This document shows positions 20,238-63,903 of a stretch of DNA of 64,000 nucleotides, piece by piece. This DNA is from a virus. Lineage: Duplodnaviria; Caudoviricetes. The position numbers and the translations under genes were made by a program. The notes beneath the pieces were generated by a model. The model made no database searches, was not told the origin of the DNA, and saw only the letters and a list, made by a program, of their open reading frames with translations. Position 1 is the first letter of the stretch; each line of letters starts with the position of its first letter. The DNA is taken from the IMG/VR virus record IMGVR_UViG_3300031993_000006, positions 32,001-96,000 of that record; one strand, written 5' to 3'.

Positions 20238-21974
20238 CTATTTCGCCTCGGCTTCCTCTCCGGGTGCCACCAGCATATCAAACATTTCATCGCTAGGGCT
20301 AACCGATACCTTGGGCATTTCGAAACCAGCCGGTATGTTCTGCATTTCAGGAGCCTTGCTATTGGCCCGCTTCGGCCCGTTACCCTTTCCTGAACGCTGC
20401 GGAGCATTTATCTGCGGTTCGGCGTTAGCGACTGCAGTCTTGTAGGCATTAGACTGCTCGTCAGTCGGACTGTACCAAGTCATCGTCTTGAAGTCGCTGC
20501 AGGTAACAAACGAAACATTTGCCGGTCCGAGACGGGACTTCAGGATGCAGTTAAGGTACATACTGAGGCTTCTTGCGGTATCGTCGGTCGTAATGGACAT
20601 CAGGAAGTCCGCCGTTTCAGCATAACCGGAAGAACCTTCAATGGATTCGATACCGGCATCGGTATTGTGGTAACCGGTGCGGTTAAACTGCACAGCTGAA
20701 AGACAGGCGAAGTTACGGGCGATAGCAATATCCCTGAGCTGCTCGGCCTTCATAACGCCGTCGCTATACATACTGCTTTCGGTCATACGGCCACGGTATG
20801 ACGGCTTCATGATACCGATGTAGTCAATCACCAAAAGGTCAAGCTTGCCGTGCGCGATTTCGAACGAATCGATGATAGCCTCGATTTCCACCGGGGTTGT
20901 CGTCGTCTTCATATACTTGACCTGCAACTGGCCGTGACGGTTGCCGACATTAGCCATATCAGCGCAGCTCTTGTCAATCTTGGCACGGATTTCTTCACCG
21001 GTCATCGTGATGACCTTGTAGAACTCAGTCCCGGTAATATTGGCCGCGATTCGCTGCCATACATAATCTTCAGCAAGTTCAAGAGTAATATAAAGGACAT
21101 TGAAACCGCTCTTATATGCATAAGCGGCTTCACTACAAAGCGCCAACGACTTACCGATATTCGGCTGGCCGACAAGTAAAGATAAAGTCTTTCGATAGTA
21201 ACCGCCACCGCATATCGTGCCGTCCGGATTCGGGCGTCCGGTATAATATCGAACTTCGTTAAGACCTGAAGGTATGCACTGTTTCTGCTCACGGAGCTTC
21301 GCGAGTGCCACTTCAATATCACTATAAAAGTTCAACCCAAGGTCAGTATGGAGGCTAAAATTGACCGCGGCATGCAGTCTGGGTACAAGGTCGTGAATCC
21401 CATCAACATGCTTGTCGTGGATTGATTCTGCGACACTAATCAAAACTTCTTCAGCAAGCCGTTCACGGAAGAAATTTTCCATCATCAGGACGATGAAGTC
21501 CTGGTGCATCCCCGGGAGCTGCGTATTATAGATAAAAATCAGCTTATCGCGAGCCTGAAGAGCATACTCGTTCTGCCCCATGCCTGTTATAAGTTCCTGC
21601 GCAGTCGGAAGCCGGGAATGCTGGTTCTCATAACGGTTAATGATGTCGACAATATTACGGTTATTCCCGTCTTTAAACAAGGAAGGGCGCAATGCATCCC
21701 TTATCTTCGGCGCCAACGCCGAATCCTGAAAAAAGACGCGCAGTACCAAATCTTCCTGCGTAAGCGCCACCACCTGCTGTGTAGGCTGCAGATACCCCGG
21801 CTGTACGGGCATATTGCCCTGCACCGGCATACCGACACCACCATAGACAGGCATTCCCGCATGAGCTTGCTGCATCTCAGGGGCTGCACCCGCCGTTACG
21901 ACGGGCATCACCGGCTGGACCATCTGCTGCATAGTGGGTACCGCTACCGCAGGATTTTGCATAGTATATTCCAT
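20238..21974 (-). CDS. Replicative DnaB-like helicase (T4 gp41-like)
   Basis: GQPNIGKS, VLYITLEL, LVIDYIGIM, AEQLRDIA, SAVQFNR, LKSRLG; Q/P/V-rich N-terminal extension. Confidence 0.95.
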   Translation of the reverse strand: MEYTMQNPAVAVPTMQQMVQPVMPVVTAGAAPEMQQAHAGMPVYGGVGMPVQGNMPVQPGYLQPTQQVVALTQEDLVLRVFFQDSALAPKIRDALRPSLFKDGNNRNIVDIINRYENQHSRLPTAQELITGMGQNEYALQARDKLIFIYNTQLPGMHQDFIVLMMENFFRERLAEEVLISVAESIHDKHVDGIHDLVPRLHAAVNFSLHTDLGLNFYSDIEVALAKLREQKQCIPSGLNEVRYYTGRPNPDGTICGGGYYRKTLSLLVGQPNIGKSLALCSEAAYAYKSGFNVLYITLELAEDYVWQRIAANITGTEFYKVITMTGEEIRAKIDKSCADMANVGNRHGQLQVKYMKTTTTPVEIEAIIDSFEIAHGKLDLLVIDYIGIMKPSYRGRMTESSMYSDGVMKAEQLRDIAIARNFACLSAVQFNRTGYHNTDAGIESIEGSSGYAETADFLMSITTDDTARSLSMYLNCILKSRLGPANVSFVTCSDFKTMTWYSPTDEQSNAYKTAVANAEPQINAPQRSGKGNGPKRANSKAPEMQNIPAGFEMPKVSVSPSDEMFDMLVAPGEEAEAK

Positions 21975-22070: not shown

Positions 22071-23438
22071 CTAGGTTTCCGGAGTGACAGGAGCCATTCC
22101 GTCACCGTCAATAAGTCCAAGAGCCTGAGCCTGAGACAACGCCTTCTGCTGCATCTTTGCGATTTCGCTGTCATTAGCGGCATCGAGTACAGATTCATCA
22201 AGGTCGGCGAGTTCCCGTTCAGTAGCTTCCTCTGCAGCTTCGTCACCGAATATGCCGAGCTTCTGGTTCTTGTACTTGTTCTGGATATACTCGTTAATCG
22301 GGTCGAGAATCGTACCGATATAACGGGCACTATGAAGCTGCGGTTCCGGTGCGACAAGCCAAGTGCTCTTGTCACGGCGCGGGTCGCAAATGACCCACTT
22401 CTTGCCCCTGAAAGTCTCCCCATTGACCTTCGGGAGTTCAAGACCCGGCCACTCTTCCTTCTTGGTGTAAGGAACGATGAGGCCAGCCTCTTCAGCCCAG
22501 ACATGCAAGCCATAGTAGCGGCTGAGGCCGTTCTGATAGCTGAGGTAGAGACGGGTACCGAACCCTTCGTGAACCATTCGGTTCTTGATGTTGCTGACCT
22601 GAATGAAAATACCGCGTACTTCCTTCTCTTTCTTCTCCCCTTCCTTCTTCGGAGCGTTGGGGTCCTTGTCGACACGTTCGGCAATCTTGTATACGGACAA
22701 GATAACAGAAGCAGAATACTTCGCACCTTCACCGCCGGCGACCTTCTTGGTCTCTGTATGGGTCTGAGCGGCATTAGGGTCGAGATAGAGGTGGTTGGTG
22801 ACATACATCGGGGCACCCATTTCGCCAAGGCGGAATGTAATGTCGCGGTACATAGCGGAAAGCTTCTTGGCCTTGGTAAGGTCAACCTTGTCCTGACCGG
22901 AAAGCACATCGTTCACATTCTTGTCGGTGGACAACATACCCTGTGAGTCAAGAACGAACGCCAGCTTGTTCGGGTTCACAAAGAGCTTATTCTTCTCAAC
23001 GTAGTCCTCGAGCTGCTTCAAAATCACGGAGATACCGTGGTGGCACTGCTCGACCGTATGGAAGTGGAGAACCTTGAACTGTCTCGGCGGGAACGCCGCG
23101 TAGTTAATGAGGTCTTCACGGGTGGTTTCGTTTTCGGTGTCGATGTAGTAGATGAAGTATCCATCCGCAAACAATGGCGGGCAGAAATTGTACTTGCCGA
23201 GCAACGACTTACCGGAACCCTGCAAGCCAGCCGCCTGCACAATCTTGTTCTTCGGGAAGCCACCTCGGACATCGCCGCAAACCACCGCATTAAGGGCATA
23301 GCAGCCGCTGTCTGCGAAACCATATGTCGGACGCTCCACATGGGCATCGACATACCTATCCGTCGTCGTGACGGTATCAAAGAACGCCCACGGATTTTCA
23401 ATCGCGGGGTCCGCGCCTTTTGTTGCTTTTTTAGCCAT
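22071..23438 (-). CDS. uvsX: RecA-like recombinase UvsX
   Basis: DSGCYALN, AGLQGSGKS, YIDTEN, VLDSQGML, VTNHLY, GGEGAKYSAS, KNR. Confidence 0.93.
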   Translation of the reverse strand: MAKKATKGADPAIENPWAFFDTVTTTDRYVDAHVERPTYGFADSGCYALNAVVCGDVRGGFPKNKIVQAAGLQGSGKSLLGKYNFCPPLFADGYFIYYIDTENETTREDLINYAAFPPRQFKVLHFHTVEQCHHGISVILKQLEDYVEKNKLFVNPNKLAFVLDSQGMLSTDKNVNDVLSGQDKVDLTKAKKLSAMYRDITFRLGEMGAPMYVTNHLYLDPNAAQTHTETKKVAGGEGAKYSASVILSVYKIAERVDKDPNAPKKEGEKKEKEVRGIFIQVSNIKNRMVHEGFGTRLYLSYQNGLSRYYGLHVWAEEAGLIVPYTKKEEWPGLELPKVNGETFRGKKWVICDPRRDKSTWLVAPEPQLHSARYIGTILDPINEYIQNKYKNQKLGIFGDEAAEEATERELADLDESVLDAANDSEIAKMQQKALSQAQALGLIDGDGMAPVTPET

Positions 23439-33224: not shown

Positions 33225-36200
33225 TTAGAACTCATCCTCTTCAGGATTTCCTTCCGGTTTCGGAGGTTCACCCCCTTCAGGATTTACCGCCGGTTGCTCT
33301 TCGTCCGGTTCATCCGGATTGACATATCCAATCTCGGCATCAGGATTATGCCTGTTAAGGGCTATGTTTTGGTTGCCGGTGTCAAATTTAGGATTAGCGA
33401 CAGGTTCATTGACGCGGGTAATCTTGATACCGTCGTCAGTCGTTACCGTACCGCCGGCGTGAGAAAGAACCTCACGCTCCTCATCGCTCAATCCACCAAG
33501 GGCAGCATTCAAACGAGTCGGAATACGGGTATCGTTAACAGACATGAACAGTTTAAGCAACTGGTTCTTCAAACGTTCGTCACCAATCGTTTCATCGATT
33601 TCCTTAGCACCCTTCAAGGTATACTTTGAAAGTTCCCGAGCAAACGATTCCCATTCATTAGCACTTCCGGTAAACGAAGTATCGTTCAATGCGTCGTCAA
33701 CCAACTCGTGAATGATGGACGCCGGAACATCAAAGATGCAAGCATCCTTCTTACGACCCTGGCGAACAATTTCATTCTTCGGACGGCCCGCATTAGCGAT
33801 ATCGACCGTCCTCTTGATACGGACACAACCAGGTATCGGAGAAAGCGACAACATATGGCGAGCATGCAATGTGCCGATAAGCAATGCCGTAATACCATCA
33901 GTATTCATACTGATATCCGGCTTGAACGAAGTGCACTGATTCACACAAGCGATGAACTTGGCAACATTTTCATCCGCACTAAGTTCAGACATATTCGTAT
34001 CGCCGGTTTCATCACAGTACTTCTGAAGTGCTGCCCTAAGGACCGCAATGCATTCATTTTCGGTAGCATATGAATCGCCGATAATATACTTGTCTGAGCC
34101 GTTAGAGAGTACATCGCTCTCGTTCTTGTTTTCCTTTATCGGGAACCCACGGACCTTACTGAAGGTACGAATCAATTCGCGGGCTTGAGCCCTCGTCAGG
34201 TTCACATCAGGAGCATACACGCCACGACTAGCACTGGCGGCGTTAGCCAAGGATTCGGCACCCTTAGTGTATAACCCGGAGTCGTTCGCAAACTCACTAG
34301 CGAGCACATCACGAATTTCGACAAACTGCTTAGCCATTTCTTCCTTAGCCTGCTGAGACATCCTCTTACCATAGAAGGTATTCCACTGTTCCAAACGTTC
34401 GCGGTTATCAGAATTTTCGACATTGCAGTAGGTATCGATAAAGCGGTTGACCGCCACATCGATAGGATTGTTTCCCCAAGAAATACGATGGGTTTCCGGG
34501 TCACTCTTTTGAGCACCGTACAAGTCAATCGACTTATCATTCGGATTCTTGTAGCCCAGCGAATCCTTGATGGAAGATACCACAGCTTCCAGTTCATCAA
34601 GAGCTCTACGACGAACAATACCAGTAGTATTAGTATCTCGGTCACGAGGCGTCGCTCCGATACGATACATCGCCGCCCTAGCAAGAAGTTTAGGATTCCC
34701 GGCTCCCTGCAACTTAGCCATCACAAATCGCACGGTCGCATCGTACAAAGCAAGAAGCTTGCTCTTAAGATTATTCACCTTATCGTTGAACTTTTCCAAA
34801 GCGCCCGCACCATTTACATGGTCAATAGAGAACTGCAAATCCTTCAATAGGCTTGCTTCCTCAGCGTCATTTTCAGACAAAATATTGTAGACCTTACGGT
34901 GCAATTCGCTAGCACCACCAATAGAGCCTTCATCAGTCTTAAGATAGCTCATATCGCTTACCGGCGAATAACCGTGCATAGTACGATATGCCTTCAAGTC
35001 GTCAGCTTCAGATGAAGTATGCTTCTTGATATACTGCCGTGAAAACTCAGACTCGCGGTTGTATAACTTGTCCAGAATGTCATTAGCAATATTCTTGCGA
35101 ACGGCATCGTTGACCGGTTTCCCGCTGGCCTCATACCTATTGAGAGTGCGAGCGTACTCATTCAAGATGTTCTCGGCGACATCATCCATATTGCCATTAG
35201 GGTCAATCATTTCGCCGATATCCTTAACCGCAGTAGCCTTAGGTACGCTCCCGTTACCAAAGCTGACCATCGCCGTAGAAATCTCGTTAAACACACCCGT
35301 ATTTTCTGTAGGCGCGTGTTCAGCGAATACCTGATTAACAATATGGTCAGCGATTTCATTTATCTGTTCTACGGTAAGGGCACCGGCATTTTCCAGCGGT
35401 ATCCGGTCCATACACATCGAGATAAAGTCATTCGCCGCAGTATCGTTACCCTTGAACAAGCCAAGAAGATTAGTGCCTTGCTCGTCACGAGCTTTAAGCG
35501 CATTCCTCTTCTTGATTGACGGAGAAATACCGGTCTGACACATTTCGCCAAGAGCAACAGAAAGTACACTCTTTAGCTTTTCAGGTGCAAGGCCTTCCAA
35601 AGTATCGTCATCAATCTGAGGGGCATCGCTATAGTGGTTACCGAATACCCGGCGCATGATGTCATTACTCTGCGCGGTACGCTGTCTAGTTTTAAGCAAA
35701 TCAGCGGAGCGGTCAGCAGTAGCCTTCATTGCATCTTCAATAGCACCGTAATCAACACAGCTATAGAGACGAGCCAATGGAGCATAGCCGGTTTCACCGC
35801 AAGTGCGAGCCGCGCTTGCCTGAATCGATTTTTCGAAAGCATTTATCCTTTCCTTGAAGAGAGGACGGCTAGTTTCGCTATCACGCTTTCTAAGGTCATC
35901 AAGAACCGGATTATTGGCTAGCATACGATTGATTACTTTAGTACGAATCGTTCTCACGATAGACATAACGATATCTTCAGTAATCTCAGTCGCGTTTCCC
36001 CCTTGATTAGGTTCAAAGGTACCAATAAACCCACCGGTCGCCTGAGCAATTTCGCCAATATTAGCGAACGGCTTTGCTATCTTAGCTGTCGTATCACGGC
36101 TGCCGTCTTCCGCAAAGGTGACATTTGACGGTTCATCTGAATCTTCCCGCTGCACACCGCTGAACACATATTCAGGGAAATCGATGGAATGCACTTGACC

Positions 36201-39200
36201 ATCCTCATCAACTTGGCCAAGCAGCTTCTTGAGGAACCACCCAACACTAGCATATGCCCTGCTGTAGCCGCTCTCATCACGCATCAACATGTACACGAAG
36301 GCGGAGGCCAAATCATTATTAACTACCCCGTTATAAATCGCGCGAGTTTCTTTGTTAGCTTTATTGTCCAGCTTGCTAAGAATATCATCAAACGGAATCA
36401 AGGCACCACGATAACCCATCGTATCGCTCATGCCCAACGCATTATAGATACCGGCCAAAGTATCAGAATAATCTTCCTCTTGATACAAGTCTCTAATATG
36501 GCTACCAAAGACTGAATGGCGCAAGTCCGAAGTCTTTTCCGTATTAATACGAGAGCTACCGCCGGTCGCTACACCCGGAAGCATACCTACAGCAGCATAC
36601 TTGTTTGTGCGCTCGCCAGGACGGCTAGCAAAATCGTTGAACTTTCCAAGACCATTTACTTCGCCCGAAACAGTTTCAGTACGCTGATATGCTTCCAACT
36701 TCAATATGATATTTGCCACGGCCGTACTTAACTTATGTGCAACTTCATATATCACCTCAGGGTCACCATTGTTGACCTCTTCACGGTTGCTCAACCCATT
36801 GACCAATTTATCGAAACTGTCGCGAACATCATTGACGACATCGGCAATAATATAGTTATTAGCCTTTGCCACTCTACTATCGATAGCTTCCTTAATAGCA
36901 GCTGCCTCAGCCACAATGTTACGACGATAGATATCCCGCTTAGATGTCATAAATACATAGAAGGCATCGATTATCTTGGTAATAATCGTATGGGCATCTG
37001 TATTCTGTGCATAAGCCGTAATCGCGGCATTCCCGCTCGACACGTCATCGTTAAGTTCCTTAGCATCCGCGTGGGCTGAATCAAGAGCAGCAGCAAGCTT
37101 CTTAAAGTCAGTCTGACTTATGCGGTCATTTAACCGAAGACGCCCGCTTCCCGTATGATAAGCATCATCGCCAAACAGGATATAGCTCATCATCGTGCAA
37201 TCAGTTGCATCCTCAAAATCATTGGCATTATCATTAGACATCCGGAGCAACGCAGACTCGTCAATAGAATCCGTAGCTTCAGCCGTCTCATCGTCAGTAC
37301 CCATATAGGATTCCGGACTCACCAACCGGTCGATAGCGTTTTCCTCACCCTCACGTCCAAGCAACTCGTCATCTTCATGACCGGTAACTCGGCGAGGGTC
37401 ACTATGGCCATAACCCTTATTGTAATCAGTCTCCTGATGTCTAGACATATTAAGTTCATCAGGAACATCCTTGGCAGCCTGCATTGCTATGATAATATCA
37501 CCCAACGAACGCTGCATAATGACAGGATTGCGCTTAGCATACGGCTCAATAATTTCAAGGAGTTGCTGCATAGATTGCACAGCATCCGGAGAAAGGGCTA
37601 CGTTATCCAAATACTGAAGCAAAACATTGTATGCCGCGACATCAGCTTTCTGGTTTGTCTTGGCTTCTCTTGGAATAGCTCCCTTGATATGCTCAAGATG
37701 AACCCGAATCAAATCCTTAAGAGCCTTGATACTCTTCGCATACAATTCGTGTCGAGTGTCGGTATCGGCATTTTCAGGATTGTCCGCAATTTCCACAAAC
37801 CGTGTAGTTATTTCGCGCATTGCGGTGCGAACGGAATCCATACCTTCATAATAGTCAAAGGTCTCACCAATATTTGCCAGAGGATGGAAAACATGTTCAG
37901 CGTCAAGCTCAGTATTATTAACAGTTATCGCATACGCATCGCGCTCTTTTTCACCATTTTCACCCACCACGAAACTGCCATCCTCGTTACGGATACAGTA
38001 TTCGTTATCTTCCAGAGCACCCAATTCAGCCGCAGGAACTATCACAAACGGATAGTCGACACCATACAAATGGTTAGTGTCTTCGGCTTCAGTTCCGAAT
38101 GCCTTGATAAGTCTCATTAAGCGTACAAAATTAGCACCATCGGGACCGTGTTCAACCCATTTAAGAACGGATTCCAATTTGCGTACATTATCGAGACCAA
38201 TATTAAAGTCCTTATTCGAAGAATAATGCTTAATGTTTGCCATCAAAGCATCAGTAAGTTCGCTAACAGCAGTCGTGGCACCTTCATGCAGATTACCGTT
38301 CAACAAATTATACAGCTTCAAGTTTTCCCAAAGACCGTCAGGAATCTCATCGGCCAGTTGGCTCCGCTTTAAATCCTTGATGCCACTTCGTTCCTTATTG
38401 AAGAAGGTCAACGCATCAGCGATTGTCCCAAACTCGTTAACATCGATTCCGCTATGTTCAACGGCATCACTCATTTCCTGAATCAAGGAAATCGTTTTCG
38501 CTGAAGCCGTACCCATCGCCCAGGTAAACTTATTCATCGAAGGAGTAAACAGTTTACCCTGCGCAGAACCGCTATTGTCCGTAAGATGAACTTCGTTGGA
38601 AGCTCCATAGTAGTCATCGGACTTGCGGTAGGTGTTAGACGGACCGCTTTCGATTGACTTCGATGCAATAAACCGAATACCACGCCACACTGCATAGCAC
38701 TTAGTAGAGTCACCCGGGTCATCCATATATACGGCACGAGGGAATACCCAAGTATCAGCAGCGCTTTCCTGAACATCATAAGTAGCACTAAGTTGTCCTG
38801 ACTCAAATCGGATTCGATAAGTATTGTCGCCGTCATTTGAATGCAAAGCCTTGAGCACCGTACCGTGCATATACTTCAAAACCTCTTTACCAGCTTTGGT
38901 AATAGAGTCTTCGGCACCACCAGTCAGGCGAAGTCGACCACGCTCGCTCTTATTAATCACATACAAAGGCTGAGCATCATCCATTGTCAAACTAGAATCC
39001 AGTTCAACATTAAGTGACTGCTGCTTCACCTCAAATACATAGCGCAATATGTAAGCACGGATTTTGCCCATCCATGTCTCTGTATATGTTGTATTAAACG
39101 ACTCGACATCATCCTTTCGTGCAGGCACATTACGGTTCCGCACAGTTTCAAGTACAATTCGAGCAATATTATACCATTCACTTGTTTCAAGCGTTTCAAG

Positions 39201-41336
39201 CCAACGGTTACGGAGTTCAATTGCGTTCGCGACAGAAGAAGAACCGGAAGCAAGAGTATACAAGTAACTCTCGACCGCCGTAATAACCTCATCTATTTTG
39301 ATTCTCGGAGAAATCGACTGCAAAGTTAATGCATTTACAGCTTGTTCATCATCTTCAACAGTTTCGGTCGGCCTAGCGGCATCAATACCATCTATCTTCT
39401 GGATACGGGCATTAGTAGAACCTACATCGGTAACAAAGATAACCGCATAGGTAGCCAAAGCTATAGCATCCCTCCACATCGCCGTTTCAAAAGGCGATAC
39501 ATCAGAACCCGGAAACACCATTCGAGTGCAAAACAACGGAATTACGCATTCCGGAGCGACCAATGCATTAGTCACATCGTCTTCACCCGAATTCAAAGTT
39601 GCCATTTCCTGACCGGGCCACTTTAACGGATTGAGAGAATCACTATCAGTAAGACGCTGAGCATATGACCCAGCGTTCTCTGCCGGAGTCGATACATCGT
39701 TAGCTTTAGCAATAGTTTCACTGCTAGGAGTCTCAACCTTTGATGGCTTGGTACCAACATTCTCAGCGATATGCGTCAAGTCATCGTCAGAAGTAACACC
39801 GGTGGTAGCTTCGCTAGCATCAGGCGTCAAGCCAGTAACAAGACTAGCAGAAAACTCGCCAGAATGCATATTATCGACTAAGGTACCCACGAGAGCGGCA
39901 ATACGCAGCGAATGATAGTAATTACCCGTCTTTTCCTTGTTGGTCAAATTTGTGAGCAACTTATTAACAGAATCGCTCAAATAGGACCCTACCTGCTTCG
40001 AAAGAGGTGCAAGCAATTCAGTATAAAGCTTGCTCGAGCGTTCTACAGATTCGCCATCACTATTGTATTCACCGCTAGCATTTTTGCCAACGACATCGCC
40101 AATTCTAGCCAAAGTCCAGTTACTTATACCACTCTTGTATATTCTGCCATCACCGGCGGAAGCTACCCTAAATGCACGGATTGCATCCATTGCAGAAGCA
40201 TATTCGGCAAGGTCATCTTCAGTTGCGCCACTTTCGCGCAATACCTTCATCGCATAAGAGTTGTCGTTGTTATCACCGACCAACGGTTCCCGCTCGGGCC
40301 CGCAAGGCATAATCGGAGCAATAACCATCAATGCAGCCAACTGGCCGATACTATAATGCTTATTCAGTTCTCCGTCCACGGCGTTATCGTTAGCCTGTTC
40401 CTGAATAGTGCTGCTCAGTACACTATCGAGAGTCCTAAGCATTTTCTGCACGGAACCATTCGCGCCATTCTGAATCAAGTCAGCCAATTTTACCGTCAAG
40501 GCAAACACCGAGTTTGCTATATTAAGGTTTGCATCGGCATCGTTCTCATCATCACTGGACTTTAGCATAATTGATGCATAGAAAATATGCTCACGCAACT
40601 TAAGCTGCGCCCACTGCTCGGCGTTGACCAGTTTAAACCGGCCGTCCGCCTTAAGCTGAGCTTCCTGCTCCTCATCTTGAGGGCATTTATACCCAAACAA
40701 AGAATCAAAGTCTATACTATCCTTAATACGCCCAAGCATTTCGAGCTTAGCATTGGCGTTTTCCTTTTGAGAAGCCGATGCACGACCGCTTGAAGTAATC
40801 TTATTTAGCTTAGTCGACATGTAGTTAAGGAAACCGATAGTCGTATAACGAGTATCGTTAAGCTTTCGGTAAATGTCGCTCAGCTGATTGTTGACCATCC
40901 GGTTGCTAAAGGCAGTATCGGTTTCACCTTTACGGCCACCTTCGGTAACATGCAACAGGATACCGCCATAAAGATTATCCAACATCTTGCACAACGGATG
41001 TGCTTCCGGATTTATTGGCGTCTCACTCGGGATATATTCACTTCGAAGCGTATCGAAGGTAATACCCGGAATCTTCTTCACGGTTTCAGGTGACCTATCA
41101 GTCGGAAACCCGGTCGGGCGCCCAGCAGTGTATGTACCGTTGCTAAGCTCCGTATAGATATCGGCCACTTCAGGATGCACAAATGATACCAAGTATGCAA
41201 CTTCAGTACCTGTATTGAACATACTGGGCAGCTGGGATTTATAACCATTCTTTATAAACCGAATGTCATTGCTTGCGTTTGCATAGTTTCTAAGCAATTC
41301 CTTCCTGGTTTCTGCATCCATCGATAGATTGGCCAT
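33225..41336 (-). CDS. Giant late protein (2703 aa), function unknown, probably virion-associated
   Basis: Uninterrupted ORF; TATAAACT at 41373-41380; GAGG Shine-Dalgarno; no recognisable catalytic motif. Confidence 0.85.
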   Translation of the reverse strand: MANLSMDAETRKELLRNYANASNDIRFIKNGYKSQLPSMFNTGTEVAYLVSFVHPEVADIYTELSNGTYTAGRPTGFPTDRSPETVKKIPGITFDTLRSEYIPSETPINPEAHPLCKMLDNLYGGILLHVTEGGRKGETDTAFSNRMVNNQLSDIYRKLNDTRYTTIGFLNYMSTKLNKITSSGRASASQKENANAKLEMLGRIKDSIDFDSLFGYKCPQDEEQEAQLKADGRFKLVNAEQWAQLKLREHIFYASIMLKSSDDENDADANLNIANSVFALTVKLADLIQNGANGSVQKMLRTLDSVLSSTIQEQANDNAVDGELNKHYSIGQLAALMVIAPIMPCGPEREPLVGDNNDNSYAMKVLRESGATEDDLAEYASAMDAIRAFRVASAGDGRIYKSGISNWTLARIGDVVGKNASGEYNSDGESVERSSKLYTELLAPLSKQVGSYLSDSVNKLLTNLTNKEKTGNYYHSLRIAALVGTLVDNMHSGEFSASLVTGLTPDASEATTGVTSDDDLTHIAENVGTKPSKVETPSSETIAKANDVSTPAENAGSYAQRLTDSDSLNPLKWPGQEMATLNSGEDDVTNALVAPECVIPLFCTRMVFPGSDVSPFETAMWRDAIALATYAVIFVTDVGSTNARIQKIDGIDAARPTETVEDDEQAVNALTLQSISPRIKIDEVITAVESYLYTLASGSSSVANAIELRNRWLETLETSEWYNIARIVLETVRNRNVPARKDDVESFNTTYTETWMGKIRAYILRYVFEVKQQSLNVELDSSLTMDDAQPLYVINKSERGRLRLTGGAEDSITKAGKEVLKYMHGTVLKALHSNDGDNTYRIRFESGQLSATYDVQESAADTWVFPRAVYMDDPGDSTKCYAVWRGIRFIASKSIESGPSNTYRKSDDYYGASNEVHLTDNSGSAQGKLFTPSMNKFTWAMGTASAKTISLIQEMSDAVEHSGIDVNEFGTIADALTFFNKERSGIKDLKRSQLADEIPDGLWENLKLYNLLNGNLHEGATTAVSELTDALMANIKHYSSNKDFNIGLDNVRKLESVLKWVEHGPDGANFVRLMRLIKAFGTEAEDTNHLYGVDYPFVIVPAAELGALEDNEYCIRNEDGSFVVGENGEKERDAYAITVNNTELDAEHVFHPLANIGETFDYYEGMDSVRTAMREITTRFVEIADNPENADTDTRHELYAKSIKALKDLIRVHLEHIKGAIPREAKTNQKADVAAYNVLLQYLDNVALSPDAVQSMQQLLEIIEPYAKRNPVIMQRSLGDIIIAMQAAKDVPDELNMSRHQETDYNKGYGHSDPRRVTGHEDDELLGREGEENAIDRLVSPESYMGTDDETAEATDSIDESALLRMSNDNANDFEDATDCTMMSYILFGDDAYHTGSGRLRLNDRISQTDFKKLAAALDSAHADAKELNDDVSSGNAAITAYAQNTDAHTIITKIIDAFYVFMTSKRDIYRRNIVAEAAAIKEAIDSRVAKANNYIIADVVNDVRDSFDKLVNGLSNREEVNNGDPEVIYEVAHKLSTAVANIILKLEAYQRTETVSGEVNGLGKFNDFASRPGERTNKYAAVGMLPGVATGGSSRINTEKTSDLRHSVFGSHIRDLYQEEDYSDTLAGIYNALGMSDTMGYRGALIPFDDILSKLDNKANKETRAIYNGVVNNDLASAFVYMLMRDESGYSRAYASVGWFLKKLLGQVDEDGQVHSIDFPEYVFSGVQREDSDEPSNVTFAEDGSRDTTAKIAKPFANIGEIAQATGGFIGTFEPNQGGNATEITEDIVMSIVRTIRTKVINRMLANNPVLDDLRKRDSETSRPLFKERINAFEKSIQASAARTCGETGYAPLARLYSCVDYGAIEDAMKATADRSADLLKTRQRTAQSNDIMRRVFGNHYSDAPQIDDDTLEGLAPEKLKSVLSVALGEMCQTGISPSIKKRNALKARDEQGTNLLGLFKGNDTAANDFISMCMDRIPLENAGALTVEQINEIADHIVNQVFAEHAPTENTGVFNEISTAMVSFGNGSVPKATAVKDIGEMIDPNGNMDDVAENILNEYARTLNRYEASGKPVNDAVRKNIANDILDKLYNRESEFSRQYIKKHTSSEADDLKAYRTMHGYSPVSDMSYLKTDEGSIGGASELHRKVYNILSENDAEEASLLKDLQFSIDHVNGAGALEKFNDKVNNLKSKLLALYDATVRFVMAKLQGAGNPKLLARAAMYRIGATPRDRDTNTTGIVRRRALDELEAVVSSIKDSLGYKNPNDKSIDLYGAQKSDPETHRISWGNNPIDVAVNRFIDTYCNVENSDNRERLEQWNTFYGKRMSQQAKEEMAKQFVEIRDVLASEFANDSGLYTKGAESLANAASASRGVYAPDVNLTRAQARELIRTFSKVRGFPIKENKNESDVLSNGSDKYIIGDSYATENECIAVLRAALQKYCDETGDTNMSELSADENVAKFIACVNQCTSFKPDISMNTDGITALLIGTLHARHMLSLSPIPGCVRIKRTVDIANAGRPKNEIVRQGRKKDACIFDVPASIIHELVDDALNDTSFTGSANEWESFARELSKYTLKGAKEIDETIGDERLKNQLLKLFMSVNDTRIPTRLNAALGGLSDEEREVLSHAGGTVTTDDGIKITRVNEPVANPKFDTGNQNIALNRHNPDAEIGYVNPDEPDEEQPAVNPEGGEPPKPEGNPEEDEF

Positions 41337-57334: not shown

Positions 57335-58054
57335 TTAGTTCGCAGGGACCGCATTTTGAAGAACCATATCGGCAAGGGCGTCGTAATCGACTCCATCATC
57401 ACCAATAGATTCCTGAAGGCTCTTCTCGCCGCACTCTTCTATCGGAGTATCGGAATTCGGCTTTTTCGAATCCTTTTCGTCTTCCTTCTTGTCATCAGAC
57501 TTTTCGGAATCCTTCTTGACCGCATTTTTCGGGAACGGTGGCTTCGGTTTAACAACCGGCTTTTCGCCTTCCTTTTCACAGACTGTTTCGCACTTGTCGC
57601 CATCACAGACGGTCGTGCATTCGCCATCCTTGCATTTACCTTCGGCGCATTCCGGTGCACCGCCGACTTCCGGCTCGGCTACCACGACTTCGGTTTCATC
57701 CGCAGATTCCTCATCATCGTCGCTATTTCCAAAAAACACTTCGGCCGGATTCTTGCCGGAAGCGACAGCCTTATCGAATTCTTCCATCACGCCACCAACG
57801 ATAGCCTGTTCATCAGTATCGAGAAGCGGCATAAACACCTGGAGAAGACCGTTAATCCCTTCCTTGAGATTTTCAGCGGTGAACCCGCCAGCAGCTTCGA
57901 GCTTAGGCTTAATGTAACCTTCACGAACGGCCATGTTATACTTGAACTTATTGAGTGCGTCATTGTTCGTCCCGTCTTTCAGGGAATCAGCAAATCCCAT
58001 AAATGCTTCAAACTGAGCAGGGCCGAGAGTACGCTTAGGTTTGATGGTGGACAT
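57335..58054 (-). CDS. Late acidic protein, candidate internal head protein
   Basis: TATAAACT at 58089-58096; QFEA, KLEA and LQES motifs; Cys-rich CxxGxC repeats. Confidence 0.75.
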   Translation of the reverse strand: MSTIKPKRTLGPAQFEAFMGFADSLKDGTNNDALNKFKYNMAVREGYIKPKLEAAGGFTAENLKEGINGLLQVFMPLLDTDEQAIVGGVMEEFDKAVASGKNPAEVFFGNSDDDEESADETEVVVAEPEVGGAPECAEGKCKDGECTTVCDGDKCETVCEKEGEKPVVKPKPPFPKNAVKKDSEKSDDKKEDEKDSKKPNSDTPIEECGEKSLQESIGDDGVDYDALADMVLQNAVPAN

Positions 58055-58113
58055 AAAAACTACCTCGTATGGTATTCAGTTATGTCCAAGTTTATATAAG
58101 TGGATAATTTTCG

Positions 58114-59661
58114 TTAACCGGCGGCAAATACGAATTCAGGTTCAGTAGCAATCCCAAGCATTTCAAGGTTGACCTCACGGTTGTACTGAGCGACATTCTT
58201 GTCGACCACGTGCTGCCTGAACTCCTCGACGGTCATGGTCGGAATGCTGAGAAGCTGCAGTTCATCATTGGCAAGGTCGTTCACCCTATGGGATAATCCC
58301 TCAGGAACGATAAGGGAATCGTGTACGGTACAATACGGGCATCCGACCTCTCGAGTAACCCTCGGTATCAACCGGTCGAACACAAAGAAACTTTCAATGC
58401 GCTGCATCTCACGAGCTAAAGCAGGGTAATTTGTAGACTTCATCTGTTCGATAGCGCATAAAAGTCTAGGGAAATGCTCGACCCAGACACGTCTTGTAGC
58501 CGCCCTTAGCTCATTTGGGTCATTTTCGATGTTAACTGGACCAAATAGGAACACGAAGAATGCCTGTTTTGCCTCATCTCGGTCAATATTTCGGTCGATA
58601 TCGCAATCTTCTGACAGCTCATTTGCGAAAAACTCGTATAATTTACCATGTTTTAGGATTGAGTCGTACTTGTCGCACTCCAAAAGGTACTTTTCGGGGT
58701 CATTTATCTTGACTTTTTGCTGCAGCTCGCATAAAGTTGGTGATGAACGGAGGTCAAAGAAGCTATGATTCTCTACAATGGCCCGCAAAATTACACCAAG
58801 AAACGCACCCTGACTTGACTTGATATCGATTGAGCTAGTTGGGTGCCCGTCGCAGGTAAGGCATTCACTACGAACTTCCTTCTTCATCTGCGTAACATTG
58901 GTATGGATTCTACCGAAACGGTCCTTCTTCACGAACAGGGCGGTATTGCTTTTCCCTATCTGGTTAAAGCGCTCGACCTTCTTCATTTCAAGACGCATCT
59001 TCTTGGGTGTCATCTTCCCGGAATCCACCATTTCCCGCAAGAGCATTTCTGCCCTATCTTCCTCTATGGCGAAATGGGTCAGCTCATCATGACACTTCCT
59101 GATTCGAGGGTCTTCAAGCTGATGTGTCTTCACATCAGCCGCACAGAGCTCAAGCCGCTTGAGGAAAGGCTTGGACTTAATCATATAAGGACGCGTCCTG
59201 CCGAACTTCTTCATCGTCCCCGTCGTATCCGACATCCGGAACTCACGGGTAAAACAGTATTTGTCCCAATAGGACGCATACGGCTTGCAGAACCAGAATG
59301 CCTTGCTCTTTCCGGGACTCGATTTTGTCCCCACAAGGTATGTACGGCTTCTACCGATGAAGCCCCAACTTTCGAGGTCCTCGATGATTCTGTTATAGTC
59401 ATTGCCTATAGCGTTTCGGAGATATAGGGAATGCAGATTACAGTGCCAAGTGTTGATATCTACCGTGTTTCCCGCCATTCGGGAATCGTGGTAGACCCGC
59501 CTAAGCTGTCGGGAAACTAAGTGAAGTACGAAAAGATACTTCTCCCTATTACGTACACAGCCGGGATGCTTCTCAAGCTTCTGCTTGAGAGGGGTCATCA
59601 CGACCTCCGGAATGCGGATTTTGTACTCAAATTTGGGTAGCATGTCCTTAAAATTAGTCAA
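58114..59661 (-). CDS. Winged-helix plus superfamily-A polymerase palm (T7-RNAP/TV-Pol-like), no exonuclease; candidate origin primase or initiator (start may be the ATG at 59643)
   Basis: DRFGRIH (DxxGR), IDIKSSQ (motif A), RDEAKQAFFVFLFG (motif B), MQRIES, TVHDSLIV (motif C); N-terminal YNRIIEDLESWGFI..Y..G..SKAF. Confidence 0.75.
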   Translation of the reverse strand: MTNFKDMLPKFEYKIRIPEVVMTPLKQKLEKHPGCVRNREKYLFVLHLVSRQLRRVYHDSRMAGNTVDINTWHCNLHSLYLRNAIGNDYNRIIEDLESWGFIGRSRTYLVGTKSSPGKSKAFWFCKPYASYWDKYCFTREFRMSDTTGTMKKFGRTRPYMIKSKPFLKRLELCAADVKTHQLEDPRIRKCHDELTHFAIEEDRAEMLLREMVDSGKMTPKKMRLEMKKVERFNQIGKSNTALFVKKDRFGRIHTNVTQMKKEVRSECLTCDGHPTSSIDIKSSQGAFLGVILRAIVENHSFFDLRSSPTLCELQQKVKINDPEKYLLECDKYDSILKHGKLYEFFANELSEDCDIDRNIDRDEAKQAFFVFLFGPVNIENDPNELRAATRRVWVEHFPRLLCAIEQMKSTNYPALAREMQRIESFFVFDRLIPRVTREVGCPYCTVHDSLIVPEGLSHRVNDLANDELQLLSIPTMTVEEFRQHVVDKNVAQYNREVNLEMLGIATEPEFVFAAG

Positions 59662-59793
59662 CCGAACGCCTTCTGGCAGGAGTTTATTTCAAAATTGCGG
59701 ACCCCATTGGTCCTTTCTATTCAAATAATAGCAAAAACTTACTTTCTTGGTGCATAGGGCTTACGCCATGTGATGGCCGATGCCATAAGCAAC

Positions 59794-59916
59794 ATCAGGT
59801 ACTATAAATATGTTTCAGGATTGAGGGTGGTTTAGGTGCTAATCCCAGGTTCCCCTGAGGATTCCCCCATGATGCAATAATGGATACAGAGTATCAAGTA
59901 CTATAAATATGTTTCA
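59794..59916 (+). repeat. Two 24-bp direct repeats ATCARGTACTATAAATATGTTTCA in a candidate origin region
   Basis: 59794-59817 and 59893-59916, one mismatch, 99-bp period. Confidence 0.9.
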
Positions 59917-60026
59917 TGATTTGAAACACAAATTCAAGCTATCGGAGGGGCTCGGAACGGCCTAAAGTCGGGGCTCCCGGGTTGCCCCCGGGGCCAATTT
60001 TAATTATATTCCATAATATGGAACCT

Positions 60027-60539
60027 ATGGATATTCGGAGGCTGACGGCCTCCAAGCTAGAGCTGTGCCCAGCGCGGGATTTCTTCGCCGGTATTACCCG
60101 GTGGTGTACCGAGTTTTCCATTATGCGACCGGCTACGATGAGTTTCCAGTATGGGAATAAGGGGAGCATCATTGTCACACCGTATGGTGAGCCGTTGGAA
60201 CTCGCCGATACCGTCACTGACCCGGAAAGGTTTAGGAAAGCCCTGTCGATGGCGGTGTTCGAGTATGTCGGCCAGTGTAACCGGGTGATTGCGAGGCTTC
60301 CGTATATGCCAAACCAGCGATACAATATGTACCGGGGTGCAGGTGAGCCTAGCAGGCCCGGTCAGGTGTATCGAGTAGTTCTCTGGACGGGGATAGGCGA
60401 TGCCGGGGAATACAAGTTCTACTTCCTGCCTGAACGGGAAGCTGACCGCAAGACGATGGGTGCCGACAACGCCCCGAAGGTAGCCTATATGGTTCCCGAA
60501 TGGGTCTACAATGACCAGGCCGGGGTCGGGAGGGGATAA
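60027..60539 (+). CDS. Hypothetical protein
   Basis: ATG within an AACCTATGGA box; TAATG overlap with uvsW. Confidence 0.7.
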   Translation: MDIRRLTASKLELCPARDFFAGITRWCTEFSIMRPATMSFQYGNKGSIIVTPYGEPLELADTVTDPERFRKALSMAVFEYVGQCNRVIARLPYMPNQRYNMYRGAGEPSRPGQVYRVVLWTGIGDAGEYKFYFLPEREADRKTMGADNAPKVAYMVPEWVYNDQAGVGRG

Positions 60540-62512
60540 TGGGAGTCGCTCCGTTCAAGGTAGTATTCGACAATGTTGATGGCGTTCTAGGCAAGATGTA
60601 TGTCCAGTGCTCGGATGTGTATACCCGTAAGACCGTGTTTGCGTTTGTGCTCGACACGATGACTTACCACAGCAAGGAAAAGGAGCGCACATGGGAAGGC
60701 CAGTTCGGGTACCACGATTGTATCGAGAAGTTCTTCAACGGGGTGGAGCATACCTTGCCGATTGGGCTTATACCCCGAGTCAAGAATTACCTTAAGGAAA
60801 CGTTTGGCGAAAATGCCCATATCGGGATTACTGACTCCATCCGGCAGATGTTTTCGCCGCCATTCGGGAAGATTACCAGTGAGACCGTGCAGAAGTATGC
60901 CGACTCGCTCGGAATGTGGAGAAAGGCGGCGTATCTTAGGGATTTGGGTAAGGCTAATGCCGCGATTGCCCGCGGGGAAAGTGTGGAGGTTCCGGACAAG
61001 TCTAAGTATGGCCTCAAGCTGTTCGACCACCAGGAGCAGATTGTGCTCGAGGCGCTCAACCGCCGACGGATATCCCTGCTGGCCTGTACGAGTTCGGGCA
61101 AGTCGCTTTCGATGATGGTTATTGCCCGGTACCTTGTCGACCGGGAGAACCGGAAGGTATTGGTGGTCGTTCCGAACGCCGCGCTGGTGCAGCAGTTGTT
61201 CCGAAACTTTGCCGAGGACTATGGATGGGAGGAGGCTGGGGAACATTGCATCAGGATGTATGCCAACTCACCGGACAAGCTAAAGAAGAAGCAGAAGGAT
61301 GAGTTGAAGCGCCTCAAGCTTGGCGAAGAGGCGATGCTGAAGGATATCACCATTTCTACCTGGCAGTCCCTCAGGACGAAGCCGGACGCCTTCTTTAAGG
61401 TGTTTACTGCGGTGATGGTGGATGAGGCGCATACGGCAAAGGGTAAGGAACTCCGCGATATTCTCGCCAAGTGTACCAACGCCAACAATCTAAAGGTAGG
61501 CTTTTCCGGGACTCTCCCGGATGCCGAGCTTACCGCCGAGATTACTTCGTCTCCCAGGCTCCGTGCGATGCTTGGTGATGTACTCCCGGGTCAGCAGATG
61601 GATGAGAGTGAAGTACGAAAAGCTGACTTGAGCAAGTATATCGACGCTGGCTTTATCGAGGGGGGTATCGGTCCCCGTAAGGATATCGTTCACCTGTGGG
61701 AGCTTATTGCGAAAGGAATCCTTACCCCTGTCAAGGTGAAGGCTATATTCATTCCGTATCCCCAGTCGGTGCGTCCAAGTATATGTTCGGCGAAGTGCCA
61801 CTATGATACCGAGCGGGATATCGTGGTCGGCAACAGTTCTCGGAAGGATGTTATCGGCAGTATGTTCGACAACGGGTATGTCACTGCTGAACAGAACACG
61901 GTAATCCTCTACAACTTCAAGGAGAACATGTATTCTCTGCTGGAGCACCTGAAGGTGAAGCATCCTGAGTTCACTTATCATGTAGTCGAGGGCGATGTCG
62001 ATGTAGACGACCGAGACGATATCAGCGTGAAGCTTGAGGACGGTGTTGGTAATGTACTGATTGCCACTTATCAGTGCCTCCGGCAGGGCGTGAACATAAC
62101 CTTGCTCCATAACCTCATTATGGCTGAGCCGGTAAAGTCCCCGTATACCGTGATGCAGTCCATCGGCCGCATTGTTCGCAAGAACTCGACCAAAACTAGT
62201 GCGACCGTGTATGACCTCGTTGATGATGCGTCGTATTACACGAGTCCGTACGGGGGAGGCCCGGGTAGACTCAAGCTCAACTATATGATGAAGCATTTCT
62301 ATATTCGGGCGGGCTATTACGAGAAGGAGAAAATTCCCATTGAGGAAGAACACTTGGATGGTATATACGAGGCGCAGGTGACACCGGACGATGTTAAGCA
62401 GCGCCGCGATGCTGCTATCAAGAAAGCGCAGGAGAATATGGCCAAGCGTCGTTCTCAGCAGCACTTCAGCGCGATTCAGCAGTTCGGGCCCCGTACGATG
62501 TTCACAAAATAG
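60539..62512 (+). CDS. uvsW: UvsW-like SF2 DNA helicase
   Basis: WEGQ..LPIGL N-domain; CTSSGKS, VVVPNAALVQQ, ISTWQS, VDEAH, GFSGT, QSIGR, YDLVDD. Confidence 0.93.
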   Translation: MGVAPFKVVFDNVDGVLGKMYVQCSDVYTRKTVFAFVLDTMTYHSKEKERTWEGQFGYHDCIEKFFNGVEHTLPIGLIPRVKNYLKETFGENAHIGITDSIRQMFSPPFGKITSETVQKYADSLGMWRKAAYLRDLGKANAAIARGESVEVPDKSKYGLKLFDHQEQIVLEALNRRRISLLACTSSGKSLSMMVIARYLVDRENRKVLVVVPNAALVQQLFRNFAEDYGWEEAGEHCIRMYANSPDKLKKKQKDELKRLKLGEEAMLKDITISTWQSLRTKPDAFFKVFTAVMVDEAHTAKGKELRDILAKCTNANNLKVGFSGTLPDAELTAEITSSPRLRAMLGDVLPGQQMDESEVRKADLSKYIDAGFIEGGIGPRKDIVHLWELIAKGILTPVKVKAIFIPYPQSVRPSICSAKCHYDTERDIVVGNSSRKDVIGSMFDNGYVTAEQNTVILYNFKENMYSLLEHLKVKHPEFTYHVVEGDVDVDDRDDISVKLEDGVGNVLIATYQCLRQGVNITLLHNLIMAEPVKSPYTVMQSIGRIVRKNSTKTSATVYDLVDDASYYTSPYGGGPGRLKLNYMMKHFYIRAGYYEKEKIPIEEEHLDGIYEAQVTPDDVKQRRDAAIKKAQENMAKRRSQQHFSAIQQFGPRTMFTK

Positions 62513-63903
62513 TGGGCAGGAAGATGCCACCCTTTAGGGTGGCTTAGGAATGCCCACGAGAACACTTTGGGAACACTTTCTTGGTTTCTTGCAGAGAAAT
62601 GAGTACAAAACGGTTGCAATTAGCACTGTACTTTTATAAACTTTAAGCTGAACACGGGTGAAAGTATGTGTACGATAACTTACGATAACTTATAATGCAG
62701 AGCTCCGCTTCAAGGATAGAGCAGACCAAGAATACTGGTCTAGTCTTCTTGGAACGGCTAGACTCGCATACAATGAGTGTGCCAACATACTAGATTCCAA
62801 CAAGATACACCTGGACTTGAAGTCCGTACACAATGCGGTGTACTATATATTACGGGAAGACTTTCCGACAATACCATCCCAAGGTATCATCAAAATATAT
62901 AAGGAGTGCATATCAGCATTCCGTTCAATCAACTCCAATGGACATATAGAACACAAGATTCCGACCAAGAAGAACCTGTCTATGCGGTTGGACAAGCGGC
63001 TCTACTCCAAAATGAGTATTGATGGAATATCGCTTTGCTCGGAGAAATCCAATCGTAGGGCAGTTGCCGAAATAGTCAAGTTTCCCCGACTGGTTGATTT
63101 GTTCAAGAAATTTCCGACCCAGGACCCACTCATCTTCAAGCGAGACGGCAAGTTCTACTTGTCCATTCCGTTTGATGCACCAGAAATTCCAGTACAGAAC
63201 GACACCTGCATCGGCGTAGACTTGGGAGAGCGTAGGTTTGCGATTACCTCGGATGGCATCATGTTCAACGACAAGGAATACAATGCCCGTAGGCGTAAAC
63301 TCCGCTACTTGAAGCGTTGCTTACAGAAGAAGGGAACCAAGTCTGCTAGACGGCATAAACGCAACTTATCAGTTAAGGAAATGAACCAGTCCACAGATAT
63401 GTGCTATAAAGTTGCTAATGCAATTATTGAAATCACGGTGGATAGCTTCATCGTCCTAGAAGATTTAAGCAATATCAAGAAGAATACTTCCAAGTCCAAG
63501 GAAGGGTTCAAGAAGAAAAATCATAACCGTAGAATTGGGCAGGTTCCGTTCTACAAATTCAAACAAATCTTGTCATACAAGGCACTACTCAATGGAAAAC
63601 GGGTAGAAACAGTTTCTCCGTTTATGACAAGCCAAACCGACTGCACGACAGGCAAGAAAGACGGAACACGCAAGAACCGAAGATTCTATTGCAAGAATGG
63701 TACCGTCCTTGATGCCGACTGGAATGGTGCAGTCAATATCGCTCAAAAGAGCAAACATCCTTTCTCGTTCAAGATGCCGCTAGACGGTACTCTGAAAACC
63801 TGGAAGGCAGGGTGCAAGTCAACCACCCAATCGTGTATCAGTCTCCCTCTGGAAACACCGGGAGCCGTACAAGCTCACCGCCTTTAGTCGGTGGGTAGTT
63901 GAC
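62510..63903 (+). mobile_element. Second non-autonomous IS200/IS605-family tnpB element
   Basis: Left-end hairpin GCCACCCT-TT-AGGGTGGC (62526-62543); right-end hairpin CTCACCGCCTTTAGTCGGTGGG followed by TAGTTGAC ending at 63903; no tnpA. The left boundary is approximate. Confidence 0.82.
62666..63887 (+). pseudogene. tnpB: tnpB frameshifted near its 5' end by a 10-bp tandem duplication
   Basis: The ATG at 62666 reads MCTITYDNL*; removing one TACGATAACT copy restores MCTITYNAELRF..., in frame with the RuvC motifs IGVDLG / VLEDL / DADWNG. Confidence 0.75.

Follow-up and report, generated by a model that had tools for sequence, protein, structure and literature searches.

A candidate replication origin with paired elements beside a minimal exonuclease-less polymerase gene in a T4-like jumbo phage

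We analysed a 64,000-nucleotide stretch of viral DNA (hereafter the window), which comprises bases 32,001-96,000 of one 259,974-bp IMG/VR virus contig (IMGVR_UViG_3300031993_000006; CheckV completeness 91%; the whole contig is called G000 below). The phage is a T4-like jumbo phage of ~260 kb with a T4-like replication gene set. The subject of this study is a minus-strand gene for a small polymerase, together with the intergenic region upstream of it, on the other side of which a small gene and a UvsW-like helicase gene point away on the plus strand. The features of the locus, in window positions, are as follows.

58114..59643, minus strand: minimal exonuclease-less polymerase gene, 509 amino acids (aa) from the ATG at 59643; the reading frame is open from a TTG at 59661
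59644..60017, no strand assigned: divergent intergenic region of ~375 bp, candidate origin of bidirectional replication; the skew minimum covers this region and the 5' end of the polymerase gene
59794..59822, minus strand: candidate origin element, copy 1, the nearer of the two to the polymerase gene; the minus strand reads AATCCTGAAACATATTTATAGTACCTGAT, with the core AAACAT-N4-ATAG
59893..59921, minus strand: candidate origin element, copy 2, distal, in the same orientation as copy 1
59910..59928, no strand assigned: inverted repeat TGTTTCA-TGATT-TGAAACA, which places a third, inverted GAAACA core beside copy 2 and is a stem in the predicted fold
59970..59997, no strand assigned: GC-rich palindrome or hairpin, then AATTTTAATT, shortly before a TATATT box and the start codon at 60018 (ATG)
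60018..60539, plus strand: small divergent gene P0205, 173 aa, no family and no fold match
60539..62512, plus strand: UvsW-like superfamily 2 (SF2) helicase, matching T4 UvsW (PDB 2OCA, E 4e-40)

The open reading frame (ORF) of the polymerase, 58114-59661 on the minus strand, has no internal stops on translation. Its start is probably the ATG at 59643, the first ATG of the frame, and the homologues begin at a matching Met.

We computed the cumulative skew of G over C along the whole contig, a check proposed in a first-pass annotation that had read a strand-skew switch here by eye. The curve forms a single V: it falls from ~255 kb across the contig ends to genome position 91,373 and then rises, and this global minimum (window 59,373, flat to ~±0.5 kb) stands next to the 5' end of the polymerase gene at genome 91,643. 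On the left of the site, plus-strand genes are C-rich (negative skew), and on its right most minus-strand genes are G-rich (positive skew); the skew is therefore positional and not transcriptional. The genes diverge from the candidate origin. Since the leading strands are G-rich and the curve has a V minimum, the site is an origin rather than a terminus. By its base composition, the site is very probably an origin of bidirectional replication.

Homologues of the polymerase are encoded at 42 IMG/VR loci, and five whole contigs among these were compared with G000. Forty loci have 1.5 kb or more of sequence on each side, and in 38 of them skew is negative to the left of the gene start (the helicase side) and higher to the right (the polymerase side). 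Three of the contigs, 253-355 kb in length, encode polymerases 37-39% identical to that of the window, and in each of them a skew change point lies no more than 270 bp from the 5' end of the homologue.

G004, 308 kb: global skew minimum at 83,551; polymerase 5' end at 83,740
G006, 355 kb: global skew minimum at 154,213; polymerase 5' end at 153,967
G002, 253 kb: local change point at 80,896, where the curve stops falling, then a plateau to ~107 kb; polymerase 5' end at 80,686

The cumulative skew of G002 (loci L073-L085) is flat for ~27 kb, from ~80 to 107 kb, on the helicase side, unlike in G000, G004 and G006; the flat stretch may be a recent insertion or inversion. The gene order is conserved as well: UvsW-like helicase, with or without a gene of 150-185 aa, intergenic region, polymerase. 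The divergent helicase and polymerase pair is kept in nearly all loci examined, with polymerase homologues 31-62% identical, and in the part of the subfamily without a gene at the P0205 position the helicase abuts the intergenic region.

The two elements of the intergenic region are 29-nt direct repeats, identical at 27 of 29 positions and spaced 99 bp start to start. Two repeat copies at this spacing had been reported from the letters alone, and they are confirmed here as a 29-nt pair of T7-promoter size that is unique in the genome: the 19-nt core occurs twice in the window where 0.01 would be expected, and no further copy was found elsewhere in the 259,974 bp with up to six mismatches allowed. 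Beyond the window, 13 or more related loci also have paired direct elements upstream of the polymerase, at spacings of 87-205 bp and in polymerase-sense orientation without exception. They share the core AAACAT-N4-[AT]T[AG]G (AAACAT-N4-WTRG), often with an A-rich run before it and GTAG(G) ~10 nt after it. Conservation of the repeats in relatives, another check that had been proposed, holds for the pair and for this core, but not for TATAAATA within the repeat, which is not conserved. Two copies within one genome agree over 18-37 nt, and the element drifts between lineages (for example GAAACATATTTATAGTAC, GTAAACATCTTTATGGA, GAAACATTAACATGGTC and GAAACATATATTTGGTAC). A degenerate pattern of the element gives three to five matches per genome, with four in G000 (two at the origin) and three in G002 (two at the origin); G006 has one at the origin. 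In size and bipartite shape the element recalls the promoters of single-subunit RNA polymerases (RNAPs).

The over-represented intergenic boxes of the phage are GCTATATTT (48 found, ~8 expected) and TATAAACT. In G000, G002, G004 and G006 the most frequent intergenic 8-mers are GCTATATTT and TATAAACT(G), and these probably correspond to two classes of promoter. The four genomes share GCTATATTT and TATAAACTG as unchanged general boxes but differ in the origin element; a drifting element beside constant general boxes fits a private site that co-evolves with its own reader. The repeats were also considered as general promoters and rejected as such, with TATAAATA not enriched (5 found, 7 expected).

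Several hairpins had been pointed out in the intergenic region. The TGTTTCA/TGAAACA and GC-rich stems exist, and the GC-rich palindrome at 59970..59997 is partly kept in the relatives L001 and L002, but the region overall does not fold unusually well (z -1.86). An Rfam scan of the region gave nothing, and sigma-70 and terminator scans of it were not above chance. In another locus (L002:9861-9894) the two long origin elements enclose an extra tandem pair, ATTATGTAAACCTG twice at a spacing of 20 bp, and L006, L008 and L009 carry the similar ATTATGTAAACTT; these look like additional short, iteron-like GTAAAC sites.

The polymerase (residue numbering of P0001, the window's protein) carries the motifs D247-x-x-G250-R251-x-H253-T254-N255, D279...S283-Q284 (motif A), R361...K365...F373-G (motif B) and H447-D448-S (motif C). 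Among 132 diverse family members, R251, D279, Q284, Y342, K365, Q420, E423, H447 and D448 are invariant, and the signatures D-x-[YF]-G-R-x-H-[TS] and T-[IV]-H-D-S are near-universal. An AlphaFold2 model was built from 31 sequences and scored 85 in the predicted local distance difference test (pLDDT). It comprises a winged-helix-like N-terminus (~residues 17-164), a thumb, and a palm and fingers with motifs A, B and C; no exonuclease domain is present in it. The first-pass annotation had listed DxxGR, motifs A, B and C, HDS, an N-terminal winged-helix-like segment and no exonuclease, and these are confirmed here; residues 17-164 match winged-helix structures at Z 5-6.6 (Fur, MarR, the winged-helix domains of ORC and Cdc6, and plasmid RepA).

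The top Foldseek matches to the model were KlenTaq, apicoplast polymerase (apPOL), Bst Pol I and T7 DNA polymerase (DNAP), with probability ~1 (1.0 for KlenTaq and apPOL). With an independent structural aligner, residues 180-485 gave Z 13.7 to Klenow (root-mean-square deviation, rmsd, 3.9; 256 residues aligned), Z 13.2 to Pol theta and Z 12.6 to T7 DNAP; the RNAP scores were 11.8 for the yeast mitochondrial enzyme (mtRNAP), 10.3 for T7 and 8.7 for phage N4 RNAPII. The alignments to yeast mtRNAP and T7 RNAP span ~350 residues, but at an rmsd of 9. The label "T7-RNAP/PolA-like" given before thus stands for the shared palm, fingers and thumb, but the fold is nearer Pol I (Z 13.7) than the T7 or mitochondrial RNAPs (Z 10.3-11.8). 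The palm, fingers and thumb fold is combined with conserved D279, R361, K365, F373-G, H447 and D448, as in family A DNA polymerases. From fold and intact catalytic residues, the protein is predicted, with good support, to be an active minimal polymerase of the PolA/single-subunit RNAP superfamily.

Sequence searches placed the protein in a large family without annotation. Its close relatives form 58 clusters, most of them on contigs of up to 440 kb, and the wider family forms 1,516 clusters (50% identity, E <= 1e-3). Pfam, PHROGs and NCBIfam had no match to the polymerase or to any of 10 distant relatives, phmmer against the PDB sequences found no match, the ESM Atlas gave unnamed clusters only, and tblastn against 50,697 phage records found six uncultured huge phages only. 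The sole PDB sequence matched by the family profile was N4 RNAPII, weakly and over motifs B and C (E 0.009); hhalign to T7 RNAP aligned motif B alone, also weakly (E 0.18). The DNA_pol_A profile (PF00476) had no match anywhere in the genome, and it did match 10 control genomes; the RNA_pol profile (PF00940) had none in the polymerase or the genome, and the control genomes likewise gave none. The Pfam profile of the RNAP beta subunit had no match in the genome.

By what is generally known of the T7 and Klenow motifs, the polymerase mixes two sets of signatures. The GRxHT signature resembles Pol I; three residues resemble the RNAPs, namely the DxxGR Asp, the HDS Ser and Tyr342 (T7 RNAP has Tyr in DIY, Pol I has His in DIH). 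In the motif A stretch D279-I-K-S-S-Q284-G-A286, the position of the Klenow E710 steric gate, five after the motif A Asp, falls on Gln284 without gaps, or on Ala286 if the helix N-cap Ser is aligned, and in neither case on Glu. T7 RNAP ends motif B with Y639, a Tyr that selects rNTPs; Phe373 takes its place here, and the consensus of the broad family is LFG. Because the Pol I-like and RNAP-like signatures are mixed, substrate choice is not readable from the sequence.

Distant members of the family occur in small islands. Two of them (P0110 and P0127) lie in islands of ~5-6 kb between housekeeping genes, with phage-type integrases and small ORFs, and a third (P0084) adjoins an IS110 transposase. 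No other replication-type gene accompanies the polymerase in these settings, an argument for an initiator that suffices by itself. A search for iterons in the small integrative island L136 gave nothing convincing. The islands in L136 (3841-7371) and L138 (3457-10527) are on bacterial contigs; L136 has a 149-aa ORF directly against the polymerase gene, and L138 has a divergent RadC-like gene.

We favour, with moderate confidence, the reading that the locus combines an origin with a dedicated initiator or primer-making polymerase that recognises the paired elements. The first-pass annotation had proposed that a dedicated polymerase binds the repeats and primes bidirectional replication; of this, the site as the best candidate origin, the polymerase-type fold and the genome-unique, conserved paired repeats stand, and we infer that the protein binds the elements, starts chains de novo and hands over to the replisome. 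The winged-helix head, the catalytic core, or both would recognise the two promoter-sized elements (AAACAT-N4-WTRG and flanks), and the polymerase would make the first primer, RNA or DNA, from the elements toward its own gene. This synthesis would open the duplex, so that PolB, the DnaB-like helicase, the primase and SSB could take over in both directions, and the neighbouring UvsW-like helicase might later remove such R-loops or D-loops. PolB and primase were already known from the earlier reading of the window; both were found again, together with a DnaB-like helicase, an SSB-like protein and UvsX.

3177-6110: PolB
14606-15796: primase
15868-17691: SSB-like protein
20238-21974: DnaB-like helicase
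22071-23438: UvsX

More tentatively, the locus may exemplify an undescribed mode of initiation, in which an enzyme intermediate between Pol I and T7 RNAP reads two private elements with its winged-helix head and lays the first primer, and in which the family serves as the self-contained initiator of many small bacterial integrative elements.

Several observations weigh against an origin with its own priming polymerase. The bottom of the skew curve is flat from ~91.2 to 91.9 kb, which resolves the origin only to ~±0.5 kb. The related genomes are syntenic, and the coincidence of gene and skew switch is therefore not four independent events. Two further contigs with more distant homologues have no V at the gene.

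G010, 572 kb: homologue ~26% identical; skew tracks the strand of the genes
G003, 187 kb: homologue ~26% identical; skew tracks the strand of the genes

The patterns used gave no clear copy of the element in about half of the related loci, mainly the group at 34-36% identity, and a search downstream of the elements revealed no consistent AT-rich unwinding element. The window's element holds CATATTTA, one mismatch off the general TATATTTA box, so the host RNAP could read it. With a conventional primase of its own, the phage has no obvious need for another priming enzyme. Finally, a repair role was suggested for divPolA2, a group of phage PolA-like proteins (Yutin et al. 2024, PMC11348598).

Part of this evidence would suit another initiator. 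P0205, a host factor, or the host RNAP with a phage activator, as at T4 oriF/oriG, might bind the elements, and the polymerase would then extend or process the product or merely be expressed. The elements face the polymerase gene, which itself lacks a general GCTATATTT box, and so they could simply be its promoters; the near match of CATATTTA to the general box points the same way, and T4-type origins are R-loop promoters. We nevertheless regard this explanation as unlikely. The general boxes are kept in four genomes while the origin element drifts, only two element copies occur per genome, and P0205 is missing from part of the subfamily and has no recognisable DNA-binding fold.

It is likewise doubtful that the protein is an accessory polymerase for gap filling, repair or translesion synthesis, which would only extend primers and would lie beside the origin by an accident of gene order. 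Its fold is nearest to DNA polymerase I, the phage has its own primase, a 5'-3' exonuclease gene is nearby in relatives, and such a role would accord with the suggestion made for divPolA2 (Yutin et al. 2024, PMC11348598). That explanation, however, leaves the winged-helix head without a function, and the gene stays linked to the skew switch and the paired elements across homologues 31-62% identical. Small integrative islands carry a relative as their sole replication-type gene, and there is no Glu at the Pol I steric gate in either alignment (Q284 or A286). A specialised single-subunit RNAP that transcribes its own small operon from two cognate promoters, with no replication role, would explain the T7-like signatures (DxxGR, HDS and Tyr342, as in T7 RNAP DIY), the N4 RNAPII match of the family profile (E 0.009) and the promoter-sized, tandem, co-oriented elements, but it is improbable: it would be odd for a polymerase to serve a single operon (here its own gene and those for two acidic, low-complexity proteins), the sizes of the downstream genes vary across relatives, the T7 Y639 equivalent is Phe373, and such a role would not account for why the gene coincides exactly with the skew switch.

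The genes around the origin and the polymerase were also examined. Sequence homologues of P0205 were found in the closest relatives only; ORFs of similar size occupy the same place in many distant loci. P0205 had no family and no Atlas match, and the best structural match of its model, a weak one (pLDDT 69, from 4 sequences), had a Z of 3.5 and is not an OB (oligonucleotide/oligosaccharide-binding) fold. No similarity was found between P0205 and the small ORF that precedes the polymerase in the islands. The helicase at 60539-62512 agrees with the previous identification of UvsW close to the site (PDB 2OCA, E 4e-40). One of two TnpB/OrfB_IS605-like genes of the window (62817-63887, plus strand) lies 300 bp past this helicase and ~3 kb from the origin, and is not at this place in the relatives examined; the other is at 6973-8145 (plus strand). 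Downstream of the polymerase are P0206 and P0207 (57335-58054 and 56170-57258, both minus strand), which are acidic, of low complexity and without a family; sizes of the genes in this position are not conserved across relatives. Elsewhere in the window, positions 33225-41336 on the minus strand hold an ORF of 2,703 aa.

To our knowledge, hardly any origin or initiator of replication has been described for jumbo and huge phages. About 30% of huge-phage genomes show bidirectional skew, with no initiator named (PMC7162821). The locus described here offers a concrete, testable origin module: a gene of a large family without annotation, a candidate cognate pair of DNA elements and a UvsW-like helicase. 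Should the enzyme prime at its own sites, this would be the first functional assignment for the divPolA2/TV-Pol-like branch outside the staphylococcal cassette chromosome mec (SCCmec). Such an enzyme would represent an extant intermediate linking DNA polymerase I to the T7-type RNAPs, and, as a compact sequence-specific polymerase, a possible tool. Phage ICP1 provides a cultivable carrier of a distant relative.

Among named systems, the closest to the polymerase appears to be divPolA2 (Rheinheimera barbaviruses, Vibrio phage 1.063.O and ICP1-like phages; Yutin et al. 2024, Virol J 21:200, PMC11348598), with TV-Pol next, although membership by sequence is weak. Foldseek against BFVD matched proteins of Barba31A and an Aeromonas phage at E 4e-7 to 1e-8 (Barba31A at E 4e-7). 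With hhalign, the family profile aligned marginally to AUR84708 over the GR hairpin and motif A (E 8e-4, probability 24%, 53 columns), and a hidden Markov model (HMM) search of its carrier genome MG592441 gave nothing. Like divPolA2, the protein is a second, exonuclease-less PolA-like protein of ~430-510 aa with an N-terminal globular domain, in a phage that already has PolB. divPolA2 genes were described in variable neighbourhoods, with a repair role suggested and no link drawn to an origin (PMC11348598); by contrast, the jumbo-phage clade has a fixed place at the skew minimum, paired elements and a divergent UvsW-like helicase. ICP1 encodes a homologue of AUR84708 (42% identical, 57,709-59,013), and its early theta or bidirectional replication gives a coverage peak "near the 60 kb position" (Barth et al., PMC7145576). 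The homologue would thus lie within 1-2 kb of the replication peak, a suggestive piece of experimental evidence, from a distant branch and at a resolution of ~1-2 kb. At this locus (L141; ICP1 MW794156, 53709-62998) the divPolA2 homologue is annotated as hypothetical and lies amid small early genes.

TV-Pol is a predicted primase-polymerase (Iyer, Abhiman, Aravind 2008, PMC2579912) with a helical thumb, an Arg on a beta-hairpin, two Asp, RxxxK fingers, no nuclease and an optional all-helical N-terminal domain. The present model with R251, D279, D448, R361 and K365 has this minimal domain, and distant members of the present family, like TV-Pol, adjoin integrases or transposases. TV-Pol neighbourhoods hold a D5-like helicase or else an integrase, resolvase or transposase; the jumbo phages have no D5-like partner, and theirs is a divergent SF2 helicase of the UvsW type. 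The first-pass annotation had brought in the TV-Pol family, and here sequence did not suffice to show membership: the family HMM had no match in the Ma-LMM01 genome, and hhalign to a 506-aa Ma-LMM01 ORF picked as the TV-Pol by its place beside transposases, and then to its relatives, aligned the N-terminal domain only (E 0.047, then 0.004, probability 8%), the sole match to that group.

A functional parallel is CCPol-MP, which acts with the Cch2 helicase in SCCmec and is an exonuclease-less A-family polymerase able to start primers de novo, with a preference for one site (Bebel et al. 2020, PMC7581432; Rice 2023, PMC10061031). Both systems place such a polymerase next to a helicase gene, in SCCmec as the replication module of a mobile element. 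CCPol-MP has an obligate small OB-fold partner, encoded beside it, that binds single-stranded DNA, whereas none was recognised here (P0205, a weak model, best Z 3.5).

The primary origin of T7 likewise has two tandem promoter-sized elements by the polymerase gene (phi1.1A and phi1.1B, with phi1.1A 26 bp after gene 1). From these promoters the single-subunit T7 RNAP makes the origin primer. T7 RNAP, however, transcribes most of its genome from 17 promoters, whereas only two sites were found here, and it has 883 aa against 509 aa for the present protein, whose fold is nearer Pol I. Another single-subunit enzyme, mtRNAP, primes mitochondrial DNA (PMC11346463).

The T4 origins oriF and oriG resemble the site in that a T4-like replisome gene set is present and a UvsW-like helicase is encoded beside it. 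In T4, origins are R-loop-forming promoters, and UvsW removes the origin R-loops. T4 relies on the host RNAP at middle promoters and has several origins and no strong genome-wide skew, whereas the present genome shows a single V.

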